Source: Asterionella formosa
Taxonomy: Eukaryota
Length of the DNA stretch: 46,661 nt
Reading direction: 5' to 3'
Assembly: GCA_002256025.1 (NCBI GenBank)
Contig: NKIB01014155.1
Span: 1-46,661 of the forward strand
Numbering within the stretch: the stretch's first letter is position 1; every line of letters begins with the position of its first letter. The translations under genes were made by a program, and so were the position numbers. The notes beneath the pieces are model-generated. The model had not been told where the DNA came from. It did not search any database and saw only the letters and a list, made by a program, of their open reading frames with translations. Of the stretch, positions 7,539-37,021 are shown one piece after another.

Positions 7539-10500
7539 TCACCTGATTTTTTTAACTGCATGCAGCACCTTGTGCTCTGAAGCCTGAATTAGGGCAGCAA
7601 TTCTCTTCTCCATTTTTTCTAATTGCTTACAAATGTCCTCACAACTTTCATCCACTTTGTTGACATCGCCAAACAGTCGCATATGAACAATTTTAATGAG
7701 TGCGTGTTGTAAGTATTCAACGCAACCAATGAGACTGCCAAGTATGCTATCTCTTTGAATCTTCTCGTAGAATCTGCTGAAAATAAATTCAAGCAGGATA
7801 AAAAGCCCACCTGCAAGTACTAATGCCATAATGACATTAAAGACGGTCACAGCAAGTGATGTATCAACAGTGAATGCAACACGCAGTAAATATACCTCAG
7901 AAAAAAAGGCAGTCCCAGCCATTATCAAGATCAGGAGCCATCGGACAAGGAATAAAATGAATACAACAATCAAATTGTACTTGGTAGTATTTTCAAGTGG
8001 GTTTTTGACAGGATGAAGAAATGTCTCTAGCGCAATACTTTTAGCTAAAAATCCAACACGGGCCCGACCAAACAATAGTCTTGCTTGGCTAGTGGATAGT
8101 TCATCTAGTCAAAAGGGAAAGCAAGTGAGAATGTTTGGTCAAGAGAATTGAAAGCTTTCAGCATCTACTTACATGATCCAGAAACGACTGCAATAAGCAC
8201 ATTCAGCAAGATGATAATTCCAAAAACTGTGAAAAGGAAGAAGAGCCAAGTGGTGGCTGAGCTTTGCTGGTATGAAGCCAATTCGAAGTCTCCAAGTAAA
8301 ACAGCATCTATTTGGCAGAATGAATAAGAATCTAGTATTTCCACAAGCACATAAAAGCCCTTCAAACTTACACATCCGAAGATACGACTGTCCAATTCCA
8401 GTGGCACAGAAATCTCCCACAGCGGAATCAACAACATTATCACACAGCGCGCCGTCATTGGAATTTGTAAAGGCAATGTGCTGTAAGAACGTTAGTTGGC
8501 GATTGTACGGCATAAACACTTGATGATGATACCATATTCTTACCATCAAATCTCCAAACATCATGATCACAACTGTCAAAACAATGGAAAAGAATCGAAT
8601 GTCAAAAATGATTTTGATGGTCGATGAGATGAACGTTGACTGAAGAAAGTGAATATGTGAGTTGGTTACCGCTTCGCAAAACGACACCAACATCACGTGT
8701 TACTCACCATCTCCATATTAATGGCCTGAAGAAAAGCAAGGACCTTGAGCCACAAAAGGGCGAGAACAATTGCATCAAACGCGGTTGGGGCTCTGGCTGT
8801 GTCCTTCTGCGTTGCTGTAGAAGCGACGACAGTCAAAGTAATGGAAAGAATGTCAAAAATATTCCAGTGGTCCAGAGTGTACGACATGAGAACCTGTTTA
8901 GAAATCCGGAGAAGAGCGATCCCTTCACCAATCTTACGAGTAAGGAAGAAAATTGCAATCGCATTGACCACATACGTCGGCGTAGCTGTGTTAAAATTGG
9001 ATGGGGCTGCAGCGCTTCGAAACGAAATCATCAGCGTCAAATGGAGAACAAAATCAATTACTGCCATGCCAATTACGAAGGGCCTTGCCAATCCGAAATT
9101 CATCATATCCCAAATCACAGCAGTTGATGCTGCCCTCTCAATTTCTTTGTCTGGCAAAACAAATATGCTAGGAACCATGTTCCCTCCAAGTGAATTGAAT
9201 GCTGCCACCATGGCAGCTCTAGTTTCATTGTATAACTCGATATCATCATGAAGGGGTGTTCTGAAGTTTCCGACGTAATCAACGAATCTCAAAGACGAAA
9301 GCAGCTCAAAGTAGTCGACAGCACGCTGAGCTGGTATTCCACTCGTTCGGAGCATTTGTAGTGTCCATTTTCCAACCGATTCCCGAGTCAAAAGTGCACG
9401 CCTAACAATTGGTTGTCGCAAAAAGCAAATTCGAGTCTCTTCGTCCTCAATCAGTAGAATTGTTTTTATTAGAAACGGGATGGAAGCAACGTGAGTGGCC
9501 AAATTCGATTGAGCCAGGCGTTTATGTTGGTATTCATTTGTTCGTGGGCCTAAACTGCCCAGCAACTCGAGCCCTTTACTCAGCATATCAAAAGCCCAGG
9601 TTGTTGCTTCTGTCACTATTACAAGAGGAAATTTATCCCTACTTTCTTCTGATAAAAGTGGAGAGCTGCGTACATAATCCGCAGGTAAATTCTCAATGCC
9701 CAAAGTAAATTTGCTAATGCTTCTGTTGAGCTTCTCAACCCTATTGAATGAAGTGGTGGAAATATTACCAAGACGGGCCTTGATATTTTCAATCATTGAT
9801 AATGGGTTTAGTCTTGAATTTTCCTCTTGAAAATAAGCCATTGTAATCCATTTAAGAATCAGGGACTGGAATGGAATGCGACCAGCTTTGTCTTCGGTGG
9901 TGAGACAATCAGGGTGAACCGCCATGAGTTGCAATGCGATTTCGCGCGCAATACCCAGTCCTCGCACCGAATCTATCAATTCAAAATTTTCAGATAGCAC
10001 ATGTAATGGCAATCGGCCATTTTCATCGCACCTACTGCATGCCTCAACATCGTTCAGCAAGACATTTTGGAATTGTTCAATTGTCACGTCTGGGCACTCC
10101 AAAATATGATGCAAATGGGTCCTTGTGGAATCCCTGTGTGGCTCCTCTAGAAATAATTGAGCCTCATTGACTGCTTCTTGGTAGTTGGTATCTGAGGTGA
10201 TTGAAGCATCTGGTGCACCACTGTTGACTGGCTCGGACGACGACGTACATTCATTGTTGGATTGCAGCGATCGTTGTATGGATTTTTGTTCCGATGCGAT
10301 GTCTTCGGGAAACGTTCTGTTTTTTTGAGTAGGCGATATGTTAATGTCATTTGTTGCTTTCCCATCATCAGTCGTTGCTTGGATATTACTCAAAATGATC
10401 GTTCCGGAGAAATTAGATAAGCTCAGCTGAATTTGCGACGAACTTGACTGTGACAATGAAATTGTGGCGTCATCGCCTTCTGGCTTGAGTTCAATGCTTA

Positions 10501-10549
10501 CTTGACCAAGCGAGAGCTGCGATATTGCAAAAGCCAAATGCTTCCCCAT
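7539..10549 (-). CDS. TRP-like / ion-transport-domain cation channel, 5 exons (10549-8708, 8639-8544, 8480-8372, 8307-8173, 8104-7539)
   Basis: Four canonical GT-AG introns join the ORFs in frame. The product has ankyrin-like DENGRLPLHVL/DKAGRIPF, S3 DHWNIFD, S4 LLWLKVLAFLQ, S5 IIFDIRFFSIV..FGD, pore YAVLLGDF, S6 IILLNVLIAVVSGSY and a C-terminal coiled coil. Confidence 0.85.
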
Positions 10550-10982
10550 AAAGGCTTGGTTAAGGCAGTAACTTCAATGCACTAATGTATATCTTGCAGC
10601 TGCCGAATGATATAAAAATTGTTGTTCGGTATACGTAAGTTCTAGTATATAAATTAAGAAACCCTCCTGACAACACGGTATACTTATTTTACAGGTACCA
10701 GGTACTATATTTCACCTCCTTATCTTCAGATGGTGAAACCAAACGTGCCCAACAGCAAATGCTCAACACACAGGAGCTCACAATCATGGATTAGTATCAA
10801 TCAAAGATCAATTAATTAGTTTAATTAAGCGCCAGATATTGGAGGCATAGTAATAGTAGTACAAGCGTGAGAATGCAAATGCATGTTTCAAAATTATCAA
10901 GCATAGTCCGTCCTTTTGTATGAAAGTACGCAGACAGTTTGATTGCAACAGCAGAGCTCAACAGAATAAAAATGCAAACCAT

Positions 10983-11699
10983 TTAAAAGGAAATATCAGT
11001 AATGTGAAAACTACCAATGAAGCCCTCGTTGTCGTCCTCCAAACTCATGTCAATGGGCACTTGCGCATCGAAAAAGTCATCAGGAGCTTGCATGCACAGG
11101 CTGTCTTCTTGGTCAATAATTTTCATCATGTCACGATGGTATTCATCACCCTCTTGAGCCTGGGTTTGAAAGGCCAGTTTCTGGTTGATACTACGAGCCT
11201 TGTAGATGTCCTCTACTGCTTGCCACGAATCACGAATGTACTCCTCCATGGAACAGAGAGAAAGTTCGTCGTCCCAAAAATCTTGCTGGTTGATATAAAG
11301 TCTTCCAGCTGGCCATTCCACGTCTTCAACATGATCCTCTTGCTTAATCAAAGATGGAGTTTTTGGCAATGGCGTTTTCTGATTGCTTCGAATGGATCGG
11401 GGCAAAGTATCGTCAAATCGACCAATCGATCCCTTCGGTGTTCGAGACGAAAGAGATGGTTGGGCAGCCGGTGTTTTGGATGGTTGAAAGCTCACAGACT
11501 TCTGCGTTGTTTGGTGCAAAAAGACCTTTTGAGAGGATTGCAACGGATCTTTCCGGTTGCTAATGTCGCCAAATGCACGTCGTTTCGTGGTAGGGGTCTT
11601 GTTGTTGTCTGCCTGGCCTTTCACTGTATTCTGGCGCACATTCTCATCCTGGAAGATGCCACAGTCCATTCCCAACAACGGAGATGCATTGCTGCGCAT
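10983..11699 (-). CDS. Disordered APC/C-degron protein, candidate securin/PATRONUS-like separase inhibitor
   Basis: 238 aa. N-terminal IFQDEN (DEN/KEN-type box), D-box-like RRAFGDISN, several TP sites, an EDVEWP motif and an acidic C-terminal half. Confidence 0.65.
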   Translation of the reverse strand: MRSNASPLLGMDCGIFQDENVRQNTVKGQADNNKTPTTKRRAFGDISNRKDPLQSSQKVFLHQTTQKSVSFQPSKTPAAQPSLSSRTPKGSIGRFDDTLPRSIRSNQKTPLPKTPSLIKQEDHVEDVEWPAGRLYINQQDFWDDELSLCSMEEYIRDSWQAVEDIYKARSINQKLAFQTQAQEGDEYHRDMMKIIDQEDSLCMQAPDDFFDAQVPIDMSLEDDNEGFIGSFHITDISF

Positions 11700-12024
11700 T
11701 ATGGTGGATGGATGGATTATGGGTCACTTGGAAAGTCAGCAAGGAATATGTGAAACAACATCATAGCTCAATTGTTGGCTGTTCCGAATCATTTTTTTAT
11801 ACACATGTAAACCCAAGCGCCAACAGCATTTATCAAAAAACGGTGTTCGCCATTATTTTGTACCGGTACGACGGTGGGTACCAGGTACGAATAAGAAAAT
11901 CCGGCTCACATCATTTGTATATAATATATTTATTTATGAATATTACATTATATAGGCAAAAGTAACAAAGTAGGAACATTACGGTAGGAAAGGTACTGGT
12001 ACCGTATGTAAACCTGGTATTATG

Positions 12025-12040
12025 TAACCCTAACCCTAAC
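12025..12040. repeat. Short interstitial telomere-like repeat (TAACCC)x2.7
   Basis: taaccctaaccctaac, which reads as TTAGGG repeats on the minus strand. Confidence 0.55.
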
Positions 12041-12060
12041 AGCAAGTTTTAATGCCCTAA

Positions 12061-12470
12061 ACCAAAATGACCGAAATACACCCTACACCATCATAAATTT
12101 GAATAAGGCTTTTGATAATTCCCTGCATCCAAATCAGATCCAGACAGACCGTTTTCATCCCACCTTACTTACATGGTATATACTGAAGAACAAACAGATG
12201 AAAGAATCTCAAAAATTGACAAGAAACTAATGGAGATAGACCACAATGACCGAAATCCACCCAACAGCATCATTAATTTGAGTGAGGCTTCTGACAATGT
12301 CCTTGCATCCAAATCAGATGCAAAACAGACCATTTCCGTCTCACTGCACCTTTATAGTACAGAATGAATAACAAACAGATGAAAAAACCACAAGAATTGA
12401 CAAGAAACTCATGGAGATGGACCAAATGACCAAAATCCATCCAGCAGCATCATTCAGTTGAGGAATGCTT
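12061..12470. repeat. Diverged tandem repeat, about 180-bp unit, about 2.3 copies
   Basis: Units start acca(a/c)aatgacc(g/a)aaat at about 12061, 12240 and 12421. Shared blocks include gcatccaaatcagat, acaaacagatgaaa and aattgacaagaaact. Confidence 0.8.
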
Positions 12471-12767: not shown

Positions 12768-13808
12768 ATGACGATGAATACGAAAGCGACGGCATCACTT
12801 CTTCTCTGGTTGACACGGTCGTCAGCATGCCAAGGATTTCCGATGCACATGATCGGGCGAAAAAGTCAAAAATGTGTCTCTCATCGATTATATTCAACTG
12901 CATCTACTCTGTCCGATGGAAGATCTCTCCATGACATTGTTTTAACTGCTGAACGCGCTGCTCGTCATGCGGGAACCATCATTCGAGCTACTGCAGGGAA
13001 TATTGACGTATCCAGCACAAAGGCTAACCATAAAGATCTAGTCACGGCCAGCGATGTTCAATGCCAAAATGATATTGAAGATATCATTCGCGGGGCCTAT
13101 CTGAATGATGTGTTTCTGGGAGAGGAACAAGTAGACTGCGGAAGTAGCGCGAGCGTCACTGCTCTCCAAAGTGCATTGAGGCAACAGCAAACATCATTGC
13201 TCTGGATTGTTGACCCCATTGACGGCACCACCAATTTCCAAGCTGGCCTACCCCTTTGCTGTGTGAGTATTGGTGTTGTTGGTAGAAACGGCATCAGCGG
13301 AACTGGGGAATCGGAAATTCTAGCTGGTGTCATTTACAATCCAATTCTTGATGAAATGGTGACTGCGGTTAAGGGAGGAGGAGTATTTGTGAATGGAAAA
13401 CATATCGCAGCGTCAAAATCGCATGAAGCTGTTTCGCTGTCATCATCACTCATAAACGTGGGCTTTCCGGTTGTCAAAGAATCAAGTCTTATGGCATCCT
13501 CCAAAGCTGTGGCTGCTCTGTCAACCAAGTGCCGGGGGCTTCGTATGATAGCATGTGCTTCTCAGCTCATGTCCTGGGTCGCCCAGGACAAGTTTCAATC
13601 ATATATCAGCTGGGATTTGAATGCATGGGACGCAGCCGCAGGTGTGCTTATTGTACAAGAAGCAGGTGGAAGTATTTTGGATTTTGATAGTGGGCTACCA
13701 GCTACCGTAGCAAGTCGCGATTTAATAGTGACGAGTCCATCGGGACGAGCGGAACTTGGTCAAGAAATCTTGACTATATTACGAGACAATGATTGTTTGC
13801 GTTATTAA
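12768..13808 (+). CDS. Inositol monophosphatase family protein (IMPase/IMPL1-like), predicted plastid-targeted
   Basis: Motifs DLVTASD, FLGEE, WIVDPIDGTTNF, YNPILDEM and WDAAAGVLIVQEAGG. Signal peptide ends ACQG|F and is followed by a basic Ser-rich transit peptide. First ATG at 12768, alternative 12774. Confidence 0.93.
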   Translation: MTMNTKATASLLLWLTRSSACQGFPMHMIGRKSQKCVSHRLYSTASTLSDGRSLHDIVLTAERAARHAGTIIRATAGNIDVSSTKANHKDLVTASDVQCQNDIEDIIRGAYLNDVFLGEEQVDCGSSASVTALQSALRQQQTSLLWIVDPIDGTTNFQAGLPLCCVSIGVVGRNGISGTGESEILAGVIYNPILDEMVTAVKGGGVFVNGKHIAASKSHEAVSLSSSLINVGFPVVKESSLMASSKAVAALSTKCRGLRMIACASQLMSWVAQDKFQSYISWDLNAWDAAAGVLIVQEAGGSILDFDSGLPATVASRDLIVTSPSGRAELGQEILTILRDNDCLRY

Positions 13809-18769: not shown

Positions 18770-21700
18770 ATGTCTTCTAGCAACGGTCGGAACGACAACA
18801 ACAACGCCTCGCCTAAACTCTTCGATGATGTCTCTGGATTTCTGCACAGAACCGAGAGACGGTCAAGTTTAGGAATGAACAACGCGGGGAAGCGCTTAAG
18901 GTCACTCGACGAAGAACCGGATACACAAGATGCGGAGCAATTTAAGCTGACACAAGACGATAAGGCCTTGCTGTTTCTGAAAAGTACGGTCATTTTCATG
19001 CTCATTGTCGCTGGAGCCATCATGGCAAGGGCAAGTCATTTGCTGGGGACGAAAGCGGAACTAGAAGTCTTCCAGAGGAGCTTTGATCAACATTCAAGAG
19101 CACTTTTGGATTTATTTCAAAGTCAAGTGGAGAAGCAAAAGCGAGTGGCTTCCATGCTCGCTGCCAGTATCACGTCTTTTGGACTAAGTACAAACGCTAC
19201 TTGGCCGTTGATATCAGTCCCCGATTTCGTTATGCGAACTACTGATGCCATGGCGCTGACAGGATCATCGGCGATCTGCTTGTCACCACTCGTTACCAAT
19301 GATACCAGGTCAGCTTGGGAATCATTTGCAGGAGGTAATAGAATTCGACAAGCTAACAGGCCCGATGAGTCAGAGCACGAAGGGGACATATTCTTTCCAA
19401 TTTCCCACGTGGCTCCTGCCTCGCGGAAAGACGATCTTTTCATTGACCAATTTTCTAATGATTTGTATGCCAGAGCCCTATCGAACATGATGAATGAAAA
19501 GTCTCCAACAATTGCCGCAATCATTTCTGACAACGAGACTGACTATTCTTGCCCAGCACTCTCTGGCATTATGCTGTTTGTTCCCATCTTTGACTCTTTT
19601 GGAACGGACAGACAAGTTGTGGGATCTCTTTTATTCAAGAACGACTGGAGGGAATTTGTTTCTGGGCTTAGGCAAGTGGCTCCCTTGGCGGTGCTTGTGG
19701 AGAATTCGTGCGGCCTTCAATTGACCTTAAAGGTTGCTGGTGAACGCGTGGACTTTATGGGACAAGGACCCCTACATGACACCTCCTTTGCAAAAATGGA
19801 AATAATTTCTGATTACTTGGATCTATACTTGCCATGGCACGAACCAGATGCCTCAGACACTCCCACGCGAGCTCATATCACTGACAGCGGGATTGAAACT
19901 TGTGAAGCTTCTTCAGCGTCCTGCCAATATCGTATTCGTATCTATCCTACTCAAGATCTATTCAATGAAAGCCATAAGCAATTGAACGCAGTCAATTATT
20001 TTTCAGTCGCGATGCAATTCTTTTTCTTTGCTGGTGTTGTTTTTATTGGCTACGATTTCATGATTCGCAAACGTCAAGATGCTATCATGGAACAAGCGGC
20101 AAAGTCCTACGCGCTTGTCGATTCCCTATTTCCGGCACAAGTAAGAAATCAAGTCATGGAGTCGACTCGCCGTGAGGGAAGTACCCGAAGGCTTTCAGCT
20201 GATAGCTCGGTTGGGTTTGACGAAGGTAGTGACCACGTTGACTACTCAACGATTGATGGACCTCCCATCGCCTCCCACTTTTCGTCGACGACCATTATGT
20301 TTGCTGATATTGCCGGCTTTACTGAGTGGAGTTCAACGCGAGAGCCCAATCAAGTATTTACCCTACTAGAAACGCTGTATGGTGCTTTTGATTTTAAAGC
20401 CAAGAGGCTTGGAGTCTTCAAGGTAGAGACAATAGGTGATTGTTACGTGGCAGTGGCTGGTCTTCCAAAGCCTAGAGACGATCACGCTGTTGTTATGGCT
20501 CGTTTTGCGTTTGAATGCCTTTCGTCACTTGACACACTTCTAAACGAATTGGAAGTCTCATTGGGTCCAGGAACCGCAAGGCTAGGCCTCCGTGTGGGAT
20601 TGCACAGTGGCCCCGTCACAGCAGGTGTACTGCGAGGAGATAAGTCTCGGTTCCAGCTCTTTGGGGATTCAATGAACACAACCTCTCGCATTGAAACTAC
20701 GGGCGAAAGGGGTTTGATACATGCTTCTGAGTCTACTGCCTCCTTCATCATTGCTGCCGGGAAGCACCACTGGCTCACGGCTAGAGTTGATCCAGTATCA
20801 GCAAAAGGAAAGGGCCTGATGAAAACGTACTGGTTAAGACCCCGATCCAGAAAGCGGATCAGAGCTGAACAGGAATCCAGTAGGACAATGTCGCCTGAAA
20901 CTGGCACACTCGCCTTTGTTTCGGAGACGAAAATTGTTTGCCCTCAGGAGGAATCTGAGGATGTACCAAAGGGGCAAAAGCCAGTGGAAGCAATATTACA
21001 AAGGGCATTATCGACTGGTGCGATTTCTACTCCGTCAATATCTCAAGTCCTAGAAATAGAGGGTAGCTGGGGCTTCATTGGTAACGATTCCATTGGTGAA
21101 GCGAGCAAAAGAGACGAACCTCTTGTGAAATCTAACACTAAGCTTCTTCACGATTTACTGGAACGAGTCCTTGCTTACAGAATCCAGTGTGGGACCCCAA
21201 TTGATGTCGGTATTGCGGACTGTACTCAGTACAAGGGATCGCATGTTATTGAGGAAGTCACAGAAGCGCTCCCCCTTGCGCCGTTTGAATCTACCAAAGC
21301 TTATACCGGCAAAGTTGATGCATTGCTCAGCAACACAGTCAAGGACCAGTTACAAGAGTACGTGGTAAATATCTCGTTCTTGTATCACAACAATCCATTC
21401 CATAACTTTGAGCACGCAAGTCATGTGGCACAGTCTGCAAACAAGCTAATGCAACAAATCGTCACTGCAAACTATGGCCTAGTATCTGATGAGGGACAGC
21501 ACACATACTCGCTTGGATTGAGCTCGGACCCATTGGCTCAGTTTGCCGTTGTTTTCGCAGCTTTAATTCATGACTGTGATCATTCTGGAGTTCCAAACGC
21601 TACCCTTGTCGACGAGCAAGCTGACGTGGCGATAAAGTACGCAAATCGTAGCCCTGCCGAGCAGAATTCCGTCGAATTGGCATGGGAATTGTTGATGGAG

Positions 21701-22243
21701 TCTCAATACAATGAACTTCGAAAATGCATTTTCCCAGATGTTAGCGAGATGCATCGATTTCGGCAACTGGTTGTCAACTGCGTCATTGCAACTGATATCG
21801 CAGATGCTGACTTACGCAACGAAAGAAAGAAGAGATGGTGTGATGTGTTCTCGGTTGAGCATGCTTCCCTTTTGGAGGGAGAGGGCATGCGGCGCAAGGC
21901 AACCATAGTCATTGACCACATCATTCAAGCATCTGATATCGCTCATACCATGCAACACTGGAGTGTTTATATAAAGTGGAATGAAAAATTGTTTCTTGAG
22001 CTCTACAAATCCTACAAAGAAGGTCGTTCAGGTGTAGATCCTGCAGGGAACTGGTTCAATGGTGAAATCGGCTTTTTTGACTTCTACATTATTCCATTGG
22101 CGAAGAAATTAAAAGAGTGTGGTGTCTTTGGTATGACTAGTGACGAGTTCTTGAAGTATGCCGTTGAGAACCGAAAAAGGTGGGAGGACGAAGGACATGA
22201 AGTATTGGATGGTTTTTTGAAGCGGGCTAATGCACAATTGTAA
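18770..22243 (+). CDS. Receptor-type class III nucleotide (guanylate-like) cyclase fused to a class I cyclic-nucleotide phosphodiesterase; TM - CHASE-like sensor - TM - cyclase - PDE
   Basis: Two hydrophobic segments flank a ~310-aa domain. Cyclase motifs IMFADIAGFT, KVETIGDCY, GLHSGPVTAGV, RFQLFGDSMNTTSRIE and KGKG. PDE motifs YHNNPFHNFEHASHV, IHDCDHSGVPN, IATDI and QASDIAH. Single exon, 1157 aa. Confidence 0.95.
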   Translation: MSSSNGRNDNNNASPKLFDDVSGFLHRTERRSSLGMNNAGKRLRSLDEEPDTQDAEQFKLTQDDKALLFLKSTVIFMLIVAGAIMARASHLLGTKAELEVFQRSFDQHSRALLDLFQSQVEKQKRVASMLAASITSFGLSTNATWPLISVPDFVMRTTDAMALTGSSAICLSPLVTNDTRSAWESFAGGNRIRQANRPDESEHEGDIFFPISHVAPASRKDDLFIDQFSNDLYARALSNMMNEKSPTIAAIISDNETDYSCPALSGIMLFVPIFDSFGTDRQVVGSLLFKNDWREFVSGLRQVAPLAVLVENSCGLQLTLKVAGERVDFMGQGPLHDTSFAKMEIISDYLDLYLPWHEPDASDTPTRAHITDSGIETCEASSASCQYRIRIYPTQDLFNESHKQLNAVNYFSVAMQFFFFAGVVFIGYDFMIRKRQDAIMEQAAKSYALVDSLFPAQVRNQVMESTRREGSTRRLSADSSVGFDEGSDHVDYSTIDGPPIASHFSSTTIMFADIAGFTEWSSTREPNQVFTLLETLYGAFDFKAKRLGVFKVETIGDCYVAVAGLPKPRDDHAVVMARFAFECLSSLDTLLNELEVSLGPGTARLGLRVGLHSGPVTAGVLRGDKSRFQLFGDSMNTTSRIETTGERGLIHASESTASFIIAAGKHHWLTARVDPVSAKGKGLMKTYWLRPRSRKRIRAEQESSRTMSPETGTLAFVSETKIVCPQEESEDVPKGQKPVEAILQRALSTGAISTPSISQVLEIEGSWGFIGNDSIGEASKRDEPLVKSNTKLLHDLLERVLAYRIQCGTPIDVGIADCTQYKGSHVIEEVTEALPLAPFESTKAYTGKVDALLSNTVKDQLQEYVVNISFLYHNNPFHNFEHASHVAQSANKLMQQIVTANYGLVSDEGQHTYSLGLSSDPLAQFAVVFAALIHDCDHSGVPNATLVDEQADVAIKYANRSPAEQNSVELAWELLMESQYNELRKCIFPDVSEMHRFRQLVVNCVIATDIADADLRNERKKRWCDVFSVEHASLLEGEGMRRKATIVIDHIIQASDIAHTMQHWSVYIKWNEKLFLELYKSYKEGRSGVDPAGNWFNGEIGFFDFYIIPLAKKLKECGVFGMTSDEFLKYAVENRKRWEDEGHEVLDGFLKRANAQL

Positions 22244-32688: not shown

Positions 32689-35600
32689 ATGAGTACTGAA
32701 ATGGCCCACTACGTTGTCACCGCGCATCCTCCTGGAGGTGTTCTTCTGACTGCCAAGTGCAACTTTACTGCTCCGAACGCAACGGTAAGCAAAGTGGACG
32801 AGCGGTTGTGCAGGAACTTAACAATGGAACGATGACATGTGACAGCACAAACCTCGTTTTGAGTTGGTTTGCCATGCACTGATGTGAGATCTTTACTCAG
32901 CGACGCACTCACGTTTTCTTGCCTTCCATCAGGACGTCATCATTGCGAAATCTCGGCGCTTGGAGATTCGCCAGGCCTCCAACGACGCCAACTCTCCGTT
33001 TCCGATCATTCTGCAAGTCCCAGTGAACGGCCGTGTCACTTCGCTGTTGCCGCTCAAGGTTCCTTTGTCTCCAACGTCTTATTTATTCATTACTACGGAC
33101 CGCTTTAGATACGCTGTCATTGGATTTGACCCAACTCGCCAGCCACATCCAATTGCAACACACGCATCCGGAACTTTCAAGCAGTTTGATCAAGGTGTGA
33201 TTGGTCGCGAAGCCGAATGTGCTCCGCTCGTGGCACTGGATCCTCACTCTCGCTGCCTTGCCCTGCATCTATATGATGGATTGATCACCATATTGCCCAT
33301 CAACTTTGGATATTCACCGCCAAAGGCTGCATTAAAGGGAGGCGCTGCGCCTAGGACACATCAGTCTCACGTTCTACTCGACGCATACCATGCTCGGATT
33401 GAGGAGCGGACTCTGTTGGACATTTGTTTTCTTTATGCGTCAGTGGAGCAGTTTCCTCAGATATGCCTGTTGCATCAAGACTCACGAGGCTTGCAGCACT
33501 TAATTAGCCATACCGTGGATTTGTCCAAGAAACAACTGGTCTTTTCTACAGACTCGCTCAAAAAATCAAGAATGGACGGGGGCTCGTCCTTGATTATCCC
33601 AGTGCCTCCCGTGTCACTCGCAGCTGCTTCTGCAACCACAACTGCAACATCGACTACTCTTGGAGGTGTCTTAGTTTTGGGTCAACGACAAATTACTTTC
33701 TTACAAACGGGCCTGTCAAGAGTCATTCCTCTACCGTCTTGCCTCTTGTTAACATGGGAAAAACTCCCAACGTTGCAAGGATGCCCTCGGTATTTGCTGA
33801 GCGATGAATTTGGAAATCTTCTCATGCTGTCGTTGACAATTGTCGGAGATAAGATATCTGGCATTTCACTAGATACACTGGGATCCTGTGTAATAGCGAG
33901 TGCTTTGACCTACATCACAGACGGCCTTTGCTTCGTAGGATCATCGTTTGGGGATTCTCAGCTGGTACAAATTATGGATCAACCCATGCCCATTGGAGAA
34001 GGTACCAGTGATTTGGAAGAAACTACGTATTTAAGCGTTGTTGAAGAATATACAAACTTAGGTCCCATTGTGGATTTTGATTTGGTTCCTACTCCTGGGA
34101 GTAGACAGTCACAGGTAGTGACGGCAAGTGGATCTTCCAATAGCGGAAGTTTGCGTCTTGTTCGCAATGGGATCGGAATGAACGAATATGCATCAGTGGA
34201 GATTCCAGGAATTCAATCCATGTGGAGCGTTCGCAAGGCATGGAAGGAGACGGACGATGCCTATTTAGTGCAATCATTTGTGAGGGATACCCGTGTTTTG
34301 GGAGTGGCAGCAGCAGGAAAAATTGATGACGAGGAGGGAGAAGAGCCAGATTGTACGTTGGAAGAAGTCATTATATCTGGACTTGACTCCACTTCGTCAT
34401 CACTATATGTAGGCAATGTTCAAGTTGGCGACACAATCGTCCAAATCACAGAAACTGAAGTGAGGATTTTGGAGGCATCGTCACTCCAGTGTAGCGAGAC
34501 ATGGGCACCTCAGGTAGACGATTTTCTGCAAGACCAGAGTCGCTCCATTACTGTGGCGTCAGCAAATGAAGCTGGTCAGATAGTGGTAGCACTACGGGGT
34601 GGGTTGGTGATCTACCTCCGTGTCAAAGCTGACGGGACAGGAAGTATAAAATTAGAGGTTATGCGCAAGTTGCAAATGGAACGAGAAGTCAGTTGTTTGA
34701 ACTTGAATCCTTTCGCTGATGCTACAGCCATGGAAGTCGACGTTGACAAAGCTGATGCTGCCATTAGTAGCTTAGTCTGCATAGGACTTTGGGACGACTT
34801 TACTGTCCGTGTTTTATCCTTGGAGGAGGATCTCAAAGAGGTTCTTCAAATCAATCTCAGTACAGACGAAGACGAGACAGAAGAATCCGAATCAATAATT
34901 CCAGTACGACGCAATAGAAACAATATGATGGCCCGAAGCTTGTGTTTTGTTACTTTGGACTCGAGTACCTCCTCATCGTCGGGTACCACATCTTTTGGAG
35001 TGAATATGTTGTTTGTTGGACTTGGCGATGGAACTTTGATCTCATTTGCTGTGGTAGATTACAATGGGCAGATTAAAGTCCAGTCGAAGAAGGAAGTGAA
35101 TTTGGGAACTCAACGAATTAATTTGATCACCCTCCAAACAGAGAGAGGTGGAACATGCATCTTAGCAACTGGCGATCGCCCTACTGTTGTTTATCTAGCG
35201 GGAGGAGGCAAAAGTTCTGGAAATTTCACACCCAAATTATGCTATTCCAATGTTAACTTGTCTGCAAGTGATGGAGAAGAAGATAATGTCAGCCGGCCAC
35301 CTGCACAGCAGAGTATCTCTATAAACGTGGCAACACCCTTTTTCTCTCCTCAACTTTTTGATGAATCTTCCTTGGGGAGCAAGCGCTATTCCCTATGTGT
35401 CTCAGACGACTCTATTTTACGCTTGGGAGTTATTGATGACATTCAAAAGCTTCACGTGACAACCTGTCGATTAGGGATGGCCCCCCGGCGAGTTGTCCAT
35501 TGTTCAGAGGGACGGTTGTTTGCAGTTGGTTGCATAGAGAGTGGTATCAAGCAAGGTGGTGGGCCAGCAAATGGTCAAAATATTGGCAACTGTATTCGTT

Positions 35601-37021
35601 TCATGGACGATACCACCTTCGATGATATTGAGAGGATTGATTTGGAACCTTATGAGATGATTCTTTCCATGGTCTATGCCAATCTAACGATGACAGGAAC
35701 AGGAGTGAAAGAAGACGTTAAGACAATAGATTCAAAAGATGACAGCTCAAACGATTCTGTTGTCAAGCCGTACCTCCTCGTGGGCACTGCCTATGCCTTG
35801 CCAGACGAAGATGAACCTACCCGTGGACGGATTTTGCTTTTTTCCTGTGATGATGACGGTAACATGAATGCTCGAGCGGTTCGACTTGTAACCGAGCTTC
35901 AAGTTCGTGGTGGTGTATACTCTATGTGCCAATTTTACAATGGGCTGATTGTGGTTACTGTCAATTCTAAGACTCATGTTGTCAAGTTGACAAATGATGG
36001 AGGTGGCATCTCGAAGCTAAATTTTGTAGGCGTCGGTCACCACGGTCATATATTGAGTCTTTTTGTAAAGTGCAAGGCTATCAAGGAGGAACCGGTCGAA
36101 TCCGAGGCTGTTAACTTGGACGACACGCCCATGAAGAAGAAGGCAACGAAGGACGATATGGAACAGTTAGTTATTGTCGGTGACCTAATGCGATCTATCT
36201 CCTTGGTTCAGTATTTCCCTGAGCACCAGGCTCTCGAAGAAGTTGCCCGAGACTTCAATGCGAATTGGACCACTGCTGTCGAAATGTTGTCCGACAGTAT
36301 CTACCTTGGATCTGAGAATTGGAACAATCTGTTTGTCTTGCGGCGGAACGCGAAGGCCGCCAGTGAGGAAGTCAGATGCCGTTTGGACACGATTGGTGAA
36401 TTTCACTTGGGCGAAATGTGTAACAAATTCATGTGTGGTTCTTTGGTAATGCCTCACACCAGCAGTACCAGTGCCAGTGCCAGTGCCAGTGCCAGTGGAA
36501 AGCCTTCCTCTAGAACTCGCAAATCCGCATCCTCCCCTGCGACAAAGACCAAGAAAGAAAGCAAAACCGCCGCTGGATCACGAGCAAGGAGACCAAATGT
36601 GTCCATTGGAAGTCAAACTCTCTTTGCTACTGTTGATGGTACATTAGGCTCTATCTTAGGAATTGATGCTCGAACAGCTGCTTTCTTCACCACCTTGGAG
36701 CGCGCCATGGCCCGCACGATTCCACCCGTGGGTGATTTCTCTCATGAAGAATTCCGCACATTTGATGCCGAGCGTCGGGTCCATCCTGCGCATGGATTTG
36801 TCGACGGTGATTTGGTGGAAAGTTTCTTAGATTTGGATCGAGGAACGATGCAGGCGGTTGTCAAGGCGATGAACAATGATGGTGGATGGGATATTGAAAC
36901 GCACGCAAAGAGCAAGGATATCGATGACGACAACGATGGTAACATTGCGTCTGAGAACAATATTGTCCTCTTGGTGGAAGATGTCCTGGCAATGGTTGAA
37001 GAAATGACCATGTTTCACTAG
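32689..37021 (+). CDS. DDB1: DNA damage-binding protein 1 (CUL4 adaptor), 2 exons (32689-32784, 32933-37021)
   Basis: Exon 1 MSTEMAHYVVTAHPPGGVLLTAKCNFT joins through a GTAAGC...CAG intron to DVIIAKSRRLEI. Motifs YTNLGPIVDF, GSLRLVRNGIG, IDDIQKLH, VGTAY.LPDEDEPTRGRI, VGDLMRSISL, EVARDFNANW and FVDGDLVESFLDL. Confidence 0.95.

Follow-up and report, generated by a model that had tools for sequence, protein, structure and literature searches.

A small, mostly disordered protein of Asterionella formosa as a candidate stramenopile securin

We analyzed a stretch of 46,661 nucleotides (nt) of Asterionella formosa DNA (contig NKIB01014155.1 of assembly GCA_002256025.1, positions 1 to 46,661 of the forward strand), referred to here as the window, and focus on a gene that lies at 10983..11699 on its minus strand. 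The protein encoded by this gene, P0001, is probably a lineage-specific securin, namely a disordered inhibitor of separase that is destroyed at anaphase onset by the APC/C (anaphase-promoting complex/cyclosome). Judging by its motifs, P0001 very likely belongs, in one role or another, among the substrates of the APC/C. Chromosome separation is held back above all by securin, whose sequence diverges so fast that securins have become known only lineage by lineage. The original prediction for this locus, a stramenopile securin, is supported in part, by sequence-level tests that concern its motifs, the conservation of its family and the absence of a cyclin exon.

The coding sequence of P0001 is an intact, uninterrupted open reading frame (ORF) of 238 amino acids (aa) and a stop codon in a single exon, and it is backed by contigs from RNA libraries and by relatives of similar length. 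All features of the protein given below are on the minus strand. The translation agrees with the original prediction as to a 238-aa ORF and the places of IFQDEN, RRAFGDISN and VEDVEWPAG, the last of which is followed by R133. IFQDEN (aa 15-20; 11640..11657) includes at aa 18-20 the sequence DEN, a variant of the KEN-type APC/C degron that is called the 'DEN-box'. The destruction box (D-box) RRAFGDISN occupies aa 40-48 and is extended by R49-K50 (11550..11582), and K34-T35-P36 (11592..11600), four residues before the D-box, is a conserved minimal proline-directed site that a kinase of the cyclin-dependent (CDK) type may phosphorylate. Further along, KSVSF (aa 67-71; 11487..11501) satisfies the RVxF docking pattern [RK]-x(0,1)-[VI]-{P}-[FW] within a disordered region and is a predicted docking motif for protein phosphatase 1 (PP1). 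GRFDDTLP (aa 93-100; 11400..11423) corresponds, in degenerate form, to the family's [KR]-V-x-F-x-L-P motif, of which P0001 keeps only L99 and P100. The proposed separase pseudosubstrate patch, VEDVEWPAGRLY, spans aa 124-135 (11295..11330), and its assignment draws on conservation and on the published separase site. It is followed by a conserved acidic run with an S150 motif, DDELSLCSMEE (aa 143-153; 11241..11273), by a predicted long helix (aa 151-202; 11094..11249) and by a C-terminal tail, T-D-I-S-F (aa 234-238; 10986..11000), which follows the tail pattern of the family.

P0001 is, as modelled, a small and mostly disordered protein. A Pfam search returned 0 families at E<=10, with no match to PF04856 (Securin), a cyclin box or geminin, and an AlphaFold2 model built from a 101-sequence alignment has a mean predicted local distance difference test (pLDDT) value of 63, with the helix at aa 151-202 as its sole confident element (block means of 82-97 for aa 151-200). 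Both results agree with the absence of a globular domain that had been expected. The protein is also divided by charge as had been described, the N-terminal 120 residues having an isoelectric point (pI) of 10.8 (20 K+R, 8 D+E) and the remainder one of 4.05 (7 K+R, 30 D+E). As for the several CDK-type TP sites that had been noticed, P0001 does carry five (T35, T76, T87, T109 and T114) as well as one SP; across the family, however, the class of [ST]P sites shows no enrichment (mean of 2.55 versus 2.21 in shuffles, 94 members), and T35-P36 is the only conserved one. When P0001 was shuffled, the D-box pattern alone appeared in 1.1% of cases, and the ordered trio of [KDN]EN, Rxx[LF]xx[ILVM]xN and [DES][IVL]Exx[non-R] in 12 of 100,000.

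Relatives of P0001 were collected by searches of increasing depth. A word-indexed search gave P0002, which differs by one residue, two 238-aa relatives at 53-57% identity and a distant 289-aa protein labelled as a complete transcript ORF; overall, relatives of 238-246 aa share 51-58% identity with P0001. When 1.84 billion representatives were searched with phmmer, 17 proteins reached E<=1e-3; two of these 17, P0007 (3182 aa) and P0018 (1845 aa), are bacterial proteins with Ig or cadherin repeats and were dropped as spurious. The alignment of 17 members (A1) was used as a profile and matched 97 proteins of 154-456 aa at E<=0.01, and a scan of metagenome contigs added 30 family loci. All of the profile matches are unnamed or 'hypothetical', apart from two with a 'YggX' label. 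These two, P0035 and P0037, are named 'Fe-S cluster biosynthesis and repair protein YggX', a name for which their sequences give no support; the DEN box, D-box and patch are present in both. One further member carries a source label beginning with 'Leptoc'.

Conservation was measured in an alignment, A2, of 101 of the 107 stored proteins shorter than 600 aa, to which all counts out of 101 refer; the six left out (P0064, P0074, P0100, P0106, P0109 and P0110) are truncated, have no D-box or have no patch, and their omission lifts the counts slightly. Mean column identity in A2 is 10%, yet the alignment contains sharply conserved islands. In the xEN box, E19 and N20 are kept in 89/101 and 87/101 members and 54 members have D at position 18 and 27 have N, while I15 and F16 are not conserved. 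The K-T-P site follows, with K34 in 88, T35 in 97 and P36 in all 101. R40, G44, D45, I46, S47 and N48 of the D-box are each invariant (101/101), position 43 is L in 54 members and F in 47, and R49 and K50 are found in 96 and 99. Columns 95-100 hold a V-x-F-x-L-P island (V 70/101, F 55/101, L 57/101, P 77/101).

The patch is the next island, and its family consensus, D-D-I-E-L-P-A-G-R-L-W, compares with V-E-D-V-E-W-P-A-G-R-L-Y in P0001. Position 126 is D in 62 members, E in 21, S in 8 and T in 7, which amounts to D/E/S/T in 98/101; position 127 is I in 73 and V in 24 (97/101), E128 is kept in 100/101, and position 129 varies. P130 occurs in 82/101, G132 in all 101, R133 in 95 and L134 in 72, and position 135 is W, Y or F in 91. 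Position 131, which would be P1, is A in 94 members, Y in 4, S in 2 and M in 1. Downstream, D144 and S150 are conserved in 76/101 and 86/101, and D+E make up a fraction of 0.24 of the 30 aa that follow the patch, compared with 0.14 of whole proteins. The helix region, aa 151-202, is among the least conserved parts of A2. The DEN box, D-box and D-[I/V]-E motif, whose conservation among relatives had been put forward as a check, thus all appear as conserved islands in a divergent, disordered sequence.

Two further motifs recur in the family, the first of which also ranks among its conserved islands. Of the 94 members with both D-box and patch, 63 carry an RVxF-like motif between the two, where shuffles lead one to expect 6.0, and the tail [DNEST]-[IVL]-[SA]-[FLI], such as D-I-S-F, ends 28 of 108 stored proteins below 600 aa (P0002 included). 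Towards the C-terminus, many gene calls from metagenomes break off into short, unrelated tails just past a conserved D-G (the column of D199, D in 82%), which suggests that many species have an intron at this point that is read through by prokaryote-style gene calling; the P0001 gene has no intron there.

Some members depart from the common plan. In a 426-aa protein (L028:203-1484), the module SRPVED[R/I]EFPAGGGIYDE is duplicated together with the downstream helix, giving two candidate pseudosubstrate patches. A divergent subgroup, consisting of P0109, P0110, L015:1534-2473 and L024:197-1100, keeps xEN boxes and the D-box; in place of D-I-E-x-P-A-G-R-L-W its patch reads E-Y-D-G-[IV]-[FY]-G-x-T-T-R-W or D-D-Y-E-D-V-F-S-P-T-T-R-W, and its C-terminus is S-L-W-G-D-[IF]. 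This subgroup may come from another algal lineage.

The arrangement of these islands can be compared with what is described for separase and its inhibitors. According to the review PMC10317155, separase sites read (S/D/E)xExxR from P6 to P1, with cleavage strictly dependent on the P1 Arg, and securin lies along separase as a stretched-out pseudosubstrate that runs antiparallel and has another residue in place of the P1 Arg; where substrates have Ser at P6, securin has Asp or Glu, and securin acidic residues located 10-40 aa downstream dock on a basic patch. The human pseudosubstrate is 113-EIEKFFP, and a change of FP to RE renders it cleavable (PMC6858450). The 'DIE motif' of Cut2 is needed for separase binding and, as described in PMC4626109, is also found in the budding-yeast (Pds1) and C. 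elegans securins and lies in an acidic region. On the use of a DIE-type pseudosubstrate by securins, these three sources and the original prediction are in accord. [quoted passage not shown] A diatom separase exists, since that of Phaeodactylum is included in an alignment described in PMC4626109.

P0001 has, at motif level, the N-terminal KEN-type box and D-box of a securin, and it is small and intrinsically disordered. As far as sequence goes, it also has a candidate pseudosubstrate with a non-Arg P1 in an acidic region C-terminal to the degrons. The family patch fits (S/D/E)xExxR at P6, P5 and P4, and Arg is found at P1 in 0/101 members.

We propose that the N-terminal module, made up of the DEN box and the D-box, would serve as a degron for APC/C-Cdc20/Cdh1, and that the K-T-P site ahead of the D-box could be a phospho-switch that tunes the timing of destruction. 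The patch D126-V-E128-W-P-A131-G-R-L-Y would fill the active-site groove of separase as a pseudosubstrate, with D126 at P6, V127 at P5, E128 at P4 and the non-cleavable A131 at P1, where substrates carry Arg. The acidic run, the helix, the acidic C-terminus and the D-I-S-F tail would then run along the rest of separase, and KSVSF may recruit PP1, perhaps with an influence of its own on destruction timing. Recognition by the APC/C, the P6-P1 register, binding to separase and PP1, and cell-cycle timing are all features that we infer from the sequence.

Like P0001, rice RSS1 and Arabidopsis PATRONUS1/2 are small and disordered, and they carry an N-terminal DEN-box and D-box, a central Glu motif and an acidic C-terminus. 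RSS1 is the closest match in layout, including the possible link to PP1: with a length of 243 aa, it carries a DEN-box, D-boxes, the WAGE motif in its center and an acidic C-terminal region. RSS1 binds PP1 as well as Cdc20, the latter through its D-box (PMC3104554). It has since been re-read as a securin (PMC6690013). [quoted passage not shown] P0001 likewise has a DEN-box and D-box in region I and an acidic region III, as PATRONUS and RSS1 do. However, no sequence homology was detected between the plant proteins and the P0001 family, whose patch reads [D/E]-[I/V]-E-x-P-A-G-R-L-[W/Y] instead of WAGE. The animal and fungal securins, such as human PTTG1, S. pombe Cut2, S. cerevisiae Pds1 and C. 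elegans IFY-1, share with P0001 the succession of a KEN-type box, a D-box and (D/E)-I-E-x-x-[non-Arg] in an acidic region; their C-terminal remainder binds along separase, and the C-terminal half of P0001 may be likened to it.

Searches based on a protein language model offered further hints. When whole P0001 was compared with the 7.7 million clusters of the ESM Atlas by feature search, an oomycete hypothetical cluster was matched at 0.94, a 'Securin' cluster (Mollusca) ranked third at 0.93, and a chordate 'securin isoform X2' cluster, 51% of whose members carry PF04856, ranked ninth at 0.92. The segment aa 100-238 alone, which is free of degrons, matched the same clusters at 0.82-0.84, with chordate securin at rank 6 (0.82), and also a 195-aa Streptophyta cluster (0.83) that is a lead only. 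By the calibration of the search itself all of these matches are leads only, one third of shuffled proteins reaching 0.8.

The DNA upstream of the gene was considered as well. AACGG is the core of the mitosis-specific activator (MSA) element, which plant 3R-Myb factors bind in G2/M genes, and one copy, possibly functional, lies at 11839..11843 on the plus strand, 144 nt upstream of the P0001 ATG. We examined 23 non-redundant loci of 31, the near-duplicates L004, L010, L013, L016, L017, L019, L020 and L022 having been dropped. In the 400 nt upstream of these genes AACGG occurs 22 times, compared with 12.5 +/- 3.4 in dinucleotide shuffles (4/500 shuffles reach 22), and 15/23 loci have at least one copy, compared with 9.1 expected. 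There is no enrichment in the coding sequences (34 versus 36.8 in shuffles) or in the 400 nt downstream (5 versus 8.2). When k-mers were counted de novo in the upstream regions of the family, only A/T-rich words came out. Myb3R is described as a regulator of G2/M genes in Arabidopsis, and Myb3R genes are present in Phaeodactylum (PMC11563040).

Several observations weigh against a securin. Some concern the ways in which P0001 differs from the animal and fungal proteins: its P1 residue is a small Ala, whereas PMC10317155 gives a large hydrophobic P1 for the solved securins, and the near-invariant G132-R133 that follows P1 has no counterpart described in known securins. The Pfam family PF04856, which represents the vertebrate PTTG family, does not match P0001 at E<=10, and profile searches of the PDB with A1, A2 and an alignment of C-terminal tails (A3) returned no securin chain. 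Their best matches, none of them significant, were the N-terminus of human cyclin B1 (E 0.048 with A1 and 0.22 with A2) and the RNF8 coiled coil (E 0.14 with A1 and 0.097 with A2). The secondary docking motifs of vertebrates are not conserved, an LPE-type motif following the patch in 11/101 members and NxLxPhiE occurring in 2/101. The plant WAGE motif, W-A-[KR]-[DEG]-G-[VI]-E, is found in 0/101, as is the looser WA..G[VI]E. The patch and the degrons are also less distinctive than they may seem, [DES][IVL]Exx[non-R] alone being present in 39% of P0001 shuffles, which makes the D-[I/V]-E core a common one, and a KEN-type box with a D-box being common to many APC/C substrates. As to the weaker hints, the recognition value in the ESM Atlas, 1563, falls short of what counts as strong, the AACGG test was chosen after the motif had been noticed upstream of the P0001 gene and its effect is modest, and MSA-type regulation in diatoms was not found documented in the parts of the literature examined. 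Since PF04856, the PDB securins, WAGE, LPE, NxLxPhiE and P1 all failed as tests, P0001 cannot be assigned to any of the existing securin sequence families, and the claim made here is that it would work like a securin. The C-terminal residues of human securin are similar to the C-D-I-S-F tail of the family, but this likeness was not used, the A3 search having returned no such match.

The locus is covered by contigs from RNA libraries (4 runs, 3 studies), and all are collinear with it, without joints or gaps. The X1 contig (994 nt) maps to 10797-11788, the X5 contig (985 nt) to 10791-11773 and the contig of the polyA library X4 (893 nt) to 10796-11688, each being built of that stretch alone. Their cover outlines an mRNA of ~1 kb at approximately 10791..11788 on the minus strand. 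Being assembled, such contigs speak for presence and collinearity, while transcript ends, strand and expression level are beyond their reach; the runs are lake/freshwater and 'algae' metatranscriptomes, from which no conclusion on habitat or strain is drawn. Because the contigs are collinear, free of joints and built of this stretch alone, the P0001 gene is a stand-alone single-exon unit of ~1 kb and not a cyclin exon. The flanks at 10612-10790 and 11789-12119 have no RNA-contig cover and were not counted as evidence.

The explanation that most directly competes with a securin starts from the same conserved parts. The best conserved of all, namely the degron pair and the K-T-P site, would also suit an APC/C substrate or regulator with another job, be it a regulatory subunit of PP1 or a pseudosubstrate that inhibits the APC/C in the manner of Acm1, Mes1 or OSD1/UVI4. 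The patch of such a protein would bind something else than separase. Rice RSS1 was first proposed to be a PP1 regulatory subunit under cell-cycle control, and the enrichment of the RVxF-like motif, taken with the binding of RSS1 to both PP1 and Cdc20, favors such a role; RSS1 itself, on the other hand, is the protein later re-read as a securin. The similarity of the N-terminal module to that of cyclin B1 and the conserved C-terminal tail of many members also point in this direction. APC/C inhibitors often use terminal tails (IR, MR, RL). The family tail, however, ends in F, L or I and not in R, and no conserved ABBA-type motif is present, positions 14-17 being variable. The patch, moreover, obeys the P6-P4 rule of separase in 98 to 100/101 members and has no Arg at P1, and it is placed in an acidic region C-terminal to the degrons, like securin DIE motifs. 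We consider an APC/C regulator of this sort unlikely. A coiled-coil regulator with a D-box, similar to geminin or of another kind, that dimerizes through the helix at aa 151-202 and acts for instance in replication licensing would explain why this 52-residue helix is the sole confidently predicted structure and why RNF8 is the best, though non-significant, PDB profile match of A2. Geminin combines an N-terminal D-box, a central coiled coil and an acidic C-terminus. In the P0001 family the helix is among the parts that vary most whereas the short linear motifs are near-invariant, Pfam shows neither geminin nor any other domain, and the invariant E-x-P-A-G-R patch would be left unaccounted for, which makes this explanation very improbable.

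A role as a genuine substrate of separase, or as a factor associated with cohesin that separase cleaves or docks on, is also highly improbable for P0001. The patch does resemble a cleavage site at P6-P4, and a conserved Arg, R133, lies two residues past P1; yet ExxR is found at the patch in 0/101 members, and the P1 Arg is, according to PMC10317155, a strict requirement for cleavage. Finally, the gene model could be an artefact. It might be the first exon of a B-type cyclin or of some other, larger gene, or an ORF present by chance across from the 277-aa antisense ORF at 10920..11753 on the plus strand. The family shares with the N-termini of B-type cyclins an xEN, a spacer of ~20 residues and R-x-A-L-G-D-I-x-N, and this stretch aligns to human cyclin B1. 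In contrast to cyclins, P0001 has no cyclin box and ends with a stop after 238 aa, and the 994- and 985-nt RNA contigs run through the locus unspliced. Longer proteins (507-2000 aa) were searched for fused forms of the family and none was found, which is weak evidence. About 100 relatives of similar length share the start (of the M-[FL]-x-x-N type) and the C-terminal tail, one of them being the protein labelled as a complete transcript ORF, and a poly(A)-signal-like hexamer, ATTAAA, lies at 10820..10825 on the minus strand, 23-29 nt before the ends of the X1, X4 and X5 contigs. All comparative evidence favors the minus frame over the long antisense ORF. An artefact is therefore close to refuted, and a spliced cyclin N-terminus, which the original prediction had named as grounds for giving up a securin, is not what the stop, the collinear contigs and the Pfam search indicate.

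The P0001 gene has some other features of note. On the minus strand, a short upstream ORF of 15 codons (ATG ATG ... TAA) is present in the 5' leader at 11717-11764, in another frame; it stops 18 nt before the main ATG and lies within the X1 and X5 contigs. The element TATAAAAA is found upstream of the gene on the same strand, from 11801 to 11794. The sole difference that recurs among the RNA-library contigs, T>A at 11591, results in T37S; contigs from three runs show it, the database protein P0002 has the changed residue too, and it is an allele or strain variant.

Neither neighbor of the gene is related to P0001: the one at 8693-10549 on the minus strand is an ORF without a Pfam match, and the one at 12768-13808 on the plus strand is an inositol monophosphatase. 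In the intergenic region upstream of the gene, ~2.5 copies of a telomere-type repeat, CCCTAA, are found at 12026-12041, and two stretches at ~12066-12120 and ~12246-12300 (within 12060-12300) are similar to each other, as copies of a repeat, dispersed or tandem, would be. The polyA run X4 has short contigs of high depth at 12120-12283. Elsewhere in the window, a 1157-aa ORF at 18770-22243 on the plus strand combines a weak CHASE match, below the Pfam cut-off, with guanylate/adenylate cyclase and cyclic-nucleotide phosphodiesterase domains, and a 1149-aa ORF at 33572-37021, on the same strand, has beta-propellers of the RSE1/DDB1/CPSF1 type and belongs to the DDB1, SF3B3 or CPSF160 family.

A survey of 2011 reported securin only in Metazoa and Fungi (PMC3195147), and the plant securins were added in 2019 (PMC6690013). 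Our literature searches on securin in diatoms, stramenopiles, Phaeodactylum and Phytophthora returned no described stramenopile securin among the texts covered. The P0001 family may well be the securin of diatoms and their relatives, and the first outside animals, fungi and plants, with a new pseudosubstrate design, a PP1-docking motif and a D-I-S-[F/L] tail. If this is true, the new design would be D-I-E-x-P-A-G-R-L-W, in which P1 is a small Ala and Gly-Arg stands just past the would-be scissile bond. The RSS1-like layout would then argue for a securin with a DEN-box, a D-box and a Glu patch in the common ancestor of plants and stramenopiles, and such a securin would probably have been present early in eukaryote evolution. 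Once validated, the family would provide separase research with a new natural pseudosubstrate sequence for the study of specificity. It would also provide a mitotic marker and, because a non-degradable form should arrest anaphase, a tool for work on the diatom cell cycle, and it would indicate that the separase-securin-APC/C switch works in a third major branch of eukaryotes.

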